64,000 nucleotides of DNA, from assembly GCF_056746865.1 (NCBI RefSeq), contig NZ_CM163382.1. One strand, 5' to 3'. Below the pieces are notes generated by a model. That model was given only the letters and a program-made list of their open reading frames with translations, ran no database searches and was not told where the DNA came from. Each line of letters opens with the position of its first letter. Positions within the stretch are counted from its first letter, which is position 1. Made by a program: the position numbers and the translations under genes. Positions 61,638 through 62,200 of this stretch are shown here, one piece after another.

Positions 61638-61922
61638 TTATTGCGTAACCAGACGGCGTAATCGCGACACATCCACCGTTTTTTCAGCCTCTGCCAGACT
61701 CCAGGCGTTTTGCAGATTCAGCCACATTTGCGGCGAACTGCCGATCACCACGGAAAGTTTAATTGCCATTTCTGGCGTCAAAGCTGCTTTTCCGGTCAGC
61801 AATCGGCTTGCCGTTGAGGGCGCAATTTCCATTGCTCTGGCAAACTCGCGCAGGCTGACATTAAGTTCGTCCAGTGATTCCTGAATAATGTCCCCCGGGC
61901 GGGGATGATTGGCCATTTTCAT
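61638..61922 (-). CDS. yddM: HigA-like antitoxin (XRE-family HTH)
   Basis: 94-aa [40 protein letters not shown]; start overlaps the stop of the upstream toxin-like ORF. Confidence 0.8.
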
Positions 61923-62200
61923 CAGTGATAGTCCTCGTAATCCAGTATGTATGCATCGCCATTGACGAATTCAAATGTGATTCGCCAGTTGCCCGAGACA
62001 GATATCGCCCAAATTCCATCGCGATCGCCGCTTAACGGGTGTAGTCGGTAACCGGGCATATCGATATCAGCAAGACAGCTTGCCGCATCAATCACAGCAA
62101 GTCGATGGCGTAATCGTTTGACTTGCGTCGGTATAACGCCGGAGGTTTTGCCGAGAAGAAACAAGTCACGCAATCCCTTGTGTCTGAAATTCATTATCAT
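61922..62200 (-). CDS. HigB-like (RelE/ParE superfamily) toxin
   Basis: 92-aa ORF ([14 protein letters not shown]...) directly upstream of yddM with ATGA stop/start overlap, the toxin-first order typical of higBA. Confidence 0.6.

Follow-up and report, generated by a model that had tools for sequence, protein, structure and literature searches.

A probable HigB-HigA toxin-antitoxin operon between fdnI and adhP in Escherichia coli, and the apparent loss of its toxin gene from most strains

Results

Organization of the locus

The window, by which we mean the whole 64,000-nucleotide stretch of contig NZ_CM163382.1 (NCBI RefSeq assembly GCF_056746865.1) that was analyzed, carries two small genes head to tail on its minus strand between fdnI and adhP, higB coming first and higA, known as yddM, second. 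A first-pass annotation of the same sequence had proposed a 92-amino-acid (aa) toxin reading frame upstream of yddM; the open reading frame (ORF) listing returns exactly that translation, and positions 61638-62200 span exactly the two ORFs. The features on which our argument draws are as follows.

61922..62200, minus strand: higB, the 92-aa toxin ORF, from the ORF listing, starting at the first ATG (62200-62198)
61638..61922, minus strand: higA (yddM), the 94-aa antitoxin ORF, from the ORF listing
61932..61936, minus strand: Shine-Dalgarno-like GAGGA for higA, read from the sequence, 9 nt before the ATG and within the last higB codons
62208..62212, minus strand: Shine-Dalgarno-like AAGGA for higB, read from the sequence, 7 nt before the ATG
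62212..62246, minus strand: operator-like region, GGAACA-N10-TGTTCC-N7-GGAACA, immediately preceding the ribosome-binding site of higB
61610..61635: hairpin right after the higA stop, an 11-pair stem with a T7 run on the plus strand, found by the terminator scan on the plus strand only
~61484-61600, between fdnI and yddM: REP/BIME-type elements, sub-threshold Rfam matches to REP-derived naRNA4 and to ES036

The two genes were originally described as overlapping by ATGA. The overlap is in fact a single base (61922), where the higB stop TGA (61924-61922) and the higA start ATG (61922-61920) read together as TGATG, although the tight coupling of the two ORFs is real. The common strand and this 1-nt overlap lead us to predict that higB and higA are cotranscribed, and the overlap, together with the GAGGA motif inside higB, suggests that their translation is coupled as well. 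The G+C contents of the two genes (48% and 52%) are unremarkable against the 48.4% of the window.

Upstream of higB, the three half-sites of the operator-like region form two overlapping inverted repeats; one inverted repeat (62212-62217 / 62225-62230) was detected by a repeat search, and the third half-site (62241-62246) was read off the sequence. Conservation extends to E. fergusonii, E. albertii, and E. coli EC958 for both the AAGGA motif and the half-sites, and K-12, which carries no toxin gene, retains the half-sites as well. We presume that 62212-62246 is a binding site for HigA, that is, a putative autoregulatory operator, with which the arrangement of the half-sites is compatible. A promoter scan of 61380-62420 found no consensus sigma-70 promoter.

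Downstream of higA, the hairpin with its T run and the REP/BIME-type stretch bear out the BIME and the terminator that had been placed beside the pair, and the hairpin likely marks the end of the minus-strand operon transcript. The REP cluster is flanked by two hairpins, one after fdnI (61435-61462) and one after yddM (61610-61635), each of which starts with a AAATGGCGC arm; only the latter was found by the terminator scan. The REP/BIME stretch varies in length among strains and is absent in LR-51 and EC958, in which the fdnI-yddM gap is ~50 bp.

The promoter region of yddM also varies. K-12 reads TTGTT-GCGTAGGAAGG-AACAA (L001, ~3735-3755) and LR-51 reads TTGTT-CCTTCCTACGC-AACAA (L010, ~1880-1900), the inner 11 nt being exactly reverse-complemented between 5-nt inverted repeats and one GGAACA half-site being altered; this difference is a tiny inversion or a template-switch polymorphism. 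Strain 1424KP (L009, 370-828 and 1220-1337), which is toxin-less, has additionally lost 29 nt between GAAGGAAC direct repeats, and with them two of the three operator-like half-sites; an IS200/IS605 tnpA is inserted between its fdnI and yddM.

The toxin gene encodes a HigB-family protein

The 92-aa protein has a single Pfam match, PF05015 (HigB-like_toxin), which scores 64.4 bits (cut-off, 27; E = 1.4e-17), with residues 4-92 covering profile positions 2-91 of 91. At the E ≤ 0.01 level the same search returned no ParE_toxin family, and no match to PF09907 was found. Solved structures tell the same story at full length: the protein matches HigB of Proteus vulgaris, encoded on plasmid Rts1, in several entries that include ribosome-bound states (E of ~1e-30 to 1e-32), among them PDB 4MCT_B (E = 8.4e-32, residues 1-92 to 2-93). 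A pairwise alignment of the window protein with Rts1 HigB is collinear, with equal lengths, 57% identity, and no gaps.

The catalytic residues are equally well preserved. Schureck et al. (PMC5027501) used growth assays and kinetics to establish that His54, Asp90, Tyr91, and His92 are essential for the activity of Rts1 HigB and that the basic residues that they tested are not. An alignment of the window protein with HigB of P. vulgaris and with its orthologues in Escherichia shows H54, D90, Y91, and H92 to be invariant. Position 69, which lies outside the set tested in that study, is Ser in the window protein and Arg in Rts1 HigB.

An AlphaFold (AF2) model built from a shallow alignment of five sequences is of low confidence (pLDDT 63.9). 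With that low-confidence model as the query, the top 14 Foldseek matches in the PDB are all P. vulgaris HigB (E of 5e-8 to 4e-6), followed by YafQ, YoeB, and RelE, with ParE ranked far lower. Sequence identity carries the weight of our assignment of HigB to the RelE-like microbial RNase fold, which the Foldseek result only corroborates. Together these data support the identification of the 92-aa ORF as a HigB-family toxin of the RelE superfamily and, by homology, as a predicted ribosome-dependent mRNA endonuclease.

The antitoxin gene yddM encodes HigA

The partner protein matches the NCBIfam equivalog model TIGR02607 (antidote_HigA) at 93.7 bits, well above the cut-off of 47.7 (E = 4.5e-27), and has an N-terminal XRE helix-turn-helix (HTH) domain (Pfam PF01381, HTH_3, residues 14-65). 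The toxin-first order and the HigB-HigA identity that the first-pass annotation had assigned to the pair are thus upheld by the PF05015 and TIGR02607 matches. Over 94 of 94 residues, the window HigA is identical to the protein in PDB entries 2ICP and 2ICT, deposited as "antitoxin HigA." The paper on this HigA structure is reportedly that of Arbing et al. 2010. A separate source (PMC6987408) attributes the 2ICP/2ICT structure to E. coli CFT073 and, taken with the PDB match, identifies 2ICP as CFT073 HigA. By sequence, we identify yddM as the gene for a HigA antitoxin of the XRE-HTH type, which presumably represses its own operon by binding the promoter.

In K-12, YddM has been treated in ChIP-exo work as an uncharacterized, stand-alone candidate transcription factor of the Xre family, and yddM also surfaced as a hit in a screen of the Keio collection. 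A gene of Bacillus subtilis that is also named yddM is unrelated. A PADLOC search returned no defense-system match for HigB and, for HigA, only weak generic HTH matches, so that a catalogued role of the pair in phage defense finds no support there.

Distribution of the toxin gene across E. coli

In K-12 MG1655, yddM (b1477) is the sole annotated gene between fdnI and adhP, in agreement with the first-pass annotation. That annotation had offered two explanations, a toxin partner left unannotated in K-12 or one specific to the strain at hand, and of these it is the second that stands. The yddM-adhP gap is 145 bp in K-12 and 464 bp in the window, and promoter-anchored alignments, on which this comparison rests because a MAFFT alignment of the window with K-12 is unreliable across the indel, place the entire higB ORF among the missing sequence, with a 22-nt linker joining yddM to the operator-like region.

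Among 5,426 complete E. coli genomes, a clinically biased collection in which fractions are therefore descriptive only, higB DNA is present in 1,330 (24.5%), always as a single copy. In all carrier rows that we inspected, the PGAP name of the product is "type II toxin-antitoxin system RelE/ParE family toxin." The exact allele of the ST131/EC958 type occurs in ~545 complete genomes, roughly 41% of the carriers, a share that is again descriptive; in it, a 1-nt deletion creates a premature stop (RLRHHSL*), and the gene is flagged as a frameshifted pseudogene (in EC958, L002 1201-1478, with the deletion at ~1380). The toxin-less junction of the K-12 type was found in at least 2,812 of the 5,426 genomes at a coverage of at least 80%, a count that misses more divergent toxin-less haplotypes of the same architecture, such as that of LR-51. 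BL21(DE3) and typical O157:H7 strains have the K-12-type junction.

Three individual records deserve mention. The record that bears one of the 1,330 higB copies is classified as a plasmid. In strain A3 (bat; H69), only 270 of the 279 nt of higB are matched, perhaps owing to an in-frame deletion of 9 nt. In O157:H7 strain TR01, a mosaic allele (L003, 2501-2580) fuses the last 47 nt of higB to a promoter fragment of the K-12 type. We considered this allele as the O157 allele, or as a deletion scar proving ancestry, and rejected it, since a junction-specific search found the junction in one genome only; the allele arose by recombination or is an artifact of assembly.

Ancestry of the pair and selection on both genes

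E. marmotae, E. albertii, and E. fergusonii have proteins at least 97% identical to the window HigB, and in the last two the pair sits in the identical context, maeA-adhP-higB-higA-fdnI. This synteny in the outgroups places the origin of the pair before that of E. coli and therefore makes the toxin-less alleles secondary losses. The comparative record thus indicates that higB-higA is ancestral to the genus and that most E. coli strains have lost the toxin while keeping HigA (YddM) and its presumed operator. At least two routes led to that loss, namely, a clean deletion in K-12, BL21, typical O157:H7, and many others, and a 1-nt frameshift in ST131. In E. albertii (L006/L007, 3568-4044), higA and fdnI are separated by an additional gene, of the NUDIX family, that the window, K-12, and E. 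fergusonii lack.

Substitution patterns point to purifying selection on both genes. Between Escherichia species, higB has 8 to 10 synonymous differences and 2 nonsynonymous differences (dN/dS of 0.05 to 0.10), and dN/dS for higA is 0 to 0.04. Among E. coli alleles, higA has accumulated 5 to 9 synonymous differences and not a single nonsynonymous one; the HigA protein is identical in K-12, O157, and EC958, despite a toxin that is gone or broken in each.

Discussion

Relation to known systems

The pair is already known, and as a toxin-antitoxin system it is ordinary: it is annotated by PGAP/RefSeq, it is listed in TADB, and it has been published, inclusive of its absence from K-12. Bustamante and Vidal (PMC7232551) catalogued the locus in the adherent-invasive strain (AIEC) NRG857c under the name TA20, "ParE-2/HigA-2"; according to them, its genes measure 279 and 285 bp, CFT073 has it too, and K-12 and HS encode the antitoxin alone at this site. 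A 2024 review (PMC11205521) equates TA20 with TADB 3.0 entry TA027334 (higB/higA) and remarks that such pairs "remain to be characterized." TA20, the CFT073 HigA of 2ICP/2ICT, and the window pair are the same locus, with an antitoxin that is 100% identical and gene sizes of 279 and 285 bp, and we see no substantive difference among them; the published "ParE-2" is a superfamily label for a protein that is HigB. Of the proviso in the first-pass annotation that the ORF might already be annotated as a characterized gene, then, the annotation is borne out by PGAP, TADB 3.0, PMC7232551, and PMC11205521, but an experimentally characterized toxin apparently is not: our literature search found no toxicity or neutralization experiment on the HigB of the E. 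coli adhP-fdnI locus.

Among the closest known systems is Rts1 HigB-HigA (4MCT/4MCX; 70S-bound in 4W4G/4YPB), the founding host-inhibition-of-growth system, which is also toxin-first. Its toxin, too, is 92 aa long and shares with the window HigB the gap-free 57% identity and the H54/D90/Y91/H92 set, and its antitoxin is an XRE-HTH protein of the HigA family that matches the window HigA at E of ~1e-18. Unlike the plasmid-borne Rts1 pair, the Escherichia pair is chromosomal, vertically inherited, and fixed at the adhP-fdnI site; its HigA has 94 rather than 104 aa, its operator sequence is locus specific, and its activity is predicted by homology. Far more distant in sequence, and with other operators, are GraT-GraA of Pseudomonas putida (PDB 6F8S) and the HigBA system of P. 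aeruginosa, which belong to the same HigB and HigA families (E = 3.8e-07 for the toxin and ~1e-11 for the antitoxin) and are autoregulated operons with HigA on a palindrome.

The name HigBA is itself a trap, since E. coli has two unrelated systems that bear it, the PF05015 pair described here and the PF09907 pair YgjN/YgjM of K-12 (b3083/b3082). [quoted passage not shown] They differ in locus, the K-12 pair lying at fadH-rlmG, and in family, YgjN matching PF09907 (3.6e-22) and the window HigB matching PF05015; a BLASTP comparison of the two toxins detected no pairwise similarity (E = 16). YgjM resembles the window HigA in the HTH region only (36% over 64 aa), a region that is C-terminal in the 138-aa YgjM. 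K-12 carries a complete YgjN/YgjM HigBA at fadH-rlmG (L011, 3233728-3234455) and an orphan HigA at adhP-fdnI, and NRG857c and CFT073 have been reported to have the arrangement opposite to that of K-12 for the two HigBA loci (PMC7232551).

An operon that is very probably intact, and its alternatives

We regard the window pair as very probably a chromosomal type II toxin-antitoxin operon that is intact and of the same kind as HigB-HigA of Rts1/Proteus, the residual doubt concerning the full activity of this allele. By homology, free HigB would enter the ribosomal A site and cut mRNA at A-rich codons, bringing translation and growth to a stop, with His54 and the C-terminal Asp90-Tyr91-His92 as its predicted catalytic residues. 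A HigA dimer would bind and neutralize HigB, and HigA, alone or in complex, would sit on the GGAACA/TGTTCC repeats upstream of higB and act there as a repressor of the operon. Once HigA was lost or degraded, the toxin would be set free.

The alternative that bears most directly on this scenario is that higB is intact in sequence but attenuated and nearing loss, so that the addiction module is in decay and only HigA/YddM matters, as a regulator. Its appeal lies in the population record: at least 2,812 genomes lack the toxin by deletion and ~545 have it frameshifted, the HigA protein remains 100% identical after toxin loss, and work on K-12 has dealt with YddM as a transcription factor candidate in its own right. 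Given loss or frameshift in most E. coli, HigB activity is clearly dispensable, and it could be attenuated in some carriers. The excess of synonymous over nonsynonymous differences between species, however, together with the full length of HigB and its retention of all four essential catalytic residues, is the pattern of maintained activity and not of drift, and we consider general attenuation improbable.

Two further alternatives fare considerably worse. A toxin of the ParE type, poisoning gyrase, is a reading invited by the names "ParE-2" (PMC7232551) and "RelE/ParE family toxin" (PGAP) and by the fold that ParE and RelE have in common. It runs up against PF05015 as the sole Pfam match, the 57% identity to a toxin proven to be a ribosome-dependent RNase, the intact His/Asp/Tyr/His set, the low rank of ParE structures in the Foldseek search (made with a low-confidence model), and a partner that is an XRE-HTH HigA rather than a ParD of the ribbon-helix-helix type; we therefore give it next to no credence and take it as effectively refuted, "ParE" being a superfamily name only. 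Still more remote, and already refuted, is the idea that the 92-aa ORF arose by chance in the yddM-adhP spacer, for which nothing but its small size speaks; the family match, the homologue of solved structure, the conservation among species, and the purifying selection all speak against it.

Implications

What interest the locus still holds lies with the antitoxin rather than the toxin. The HigA protein is 100% conserved, and the presumed operator is kept, after the loss of HigB in about three-quarters of E. coli, which suggests that HigA has a job independent of the toxin. We put forward tentatively, and at rather less than even odds, that orphan HigA/YddM may have been domesticated to regulate other targets, or that it may provide standing "anti-addiction" immunity to higBA modules of the Rts1 type that enter the cell.

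As a discovery the locus offers little, since the structure of its antitoxin, its annotation, its TADB entry, and its publication exist already; its value is modest and is both practical and evolutionary. The chromosomes of K-12 and BL21(DE3) encode an identical antitoxin, so that a HigB toxicity assay in either standard host would be buffered as long as yddM is in place. For the evolution of such modules, the locus provides a clean example of an ancestral chromosomal pair whose toxin has been lost on more than one occasion, through deletion as well as through the frameshift of ST131, and whose antitoxin has been kept under purifying selection.
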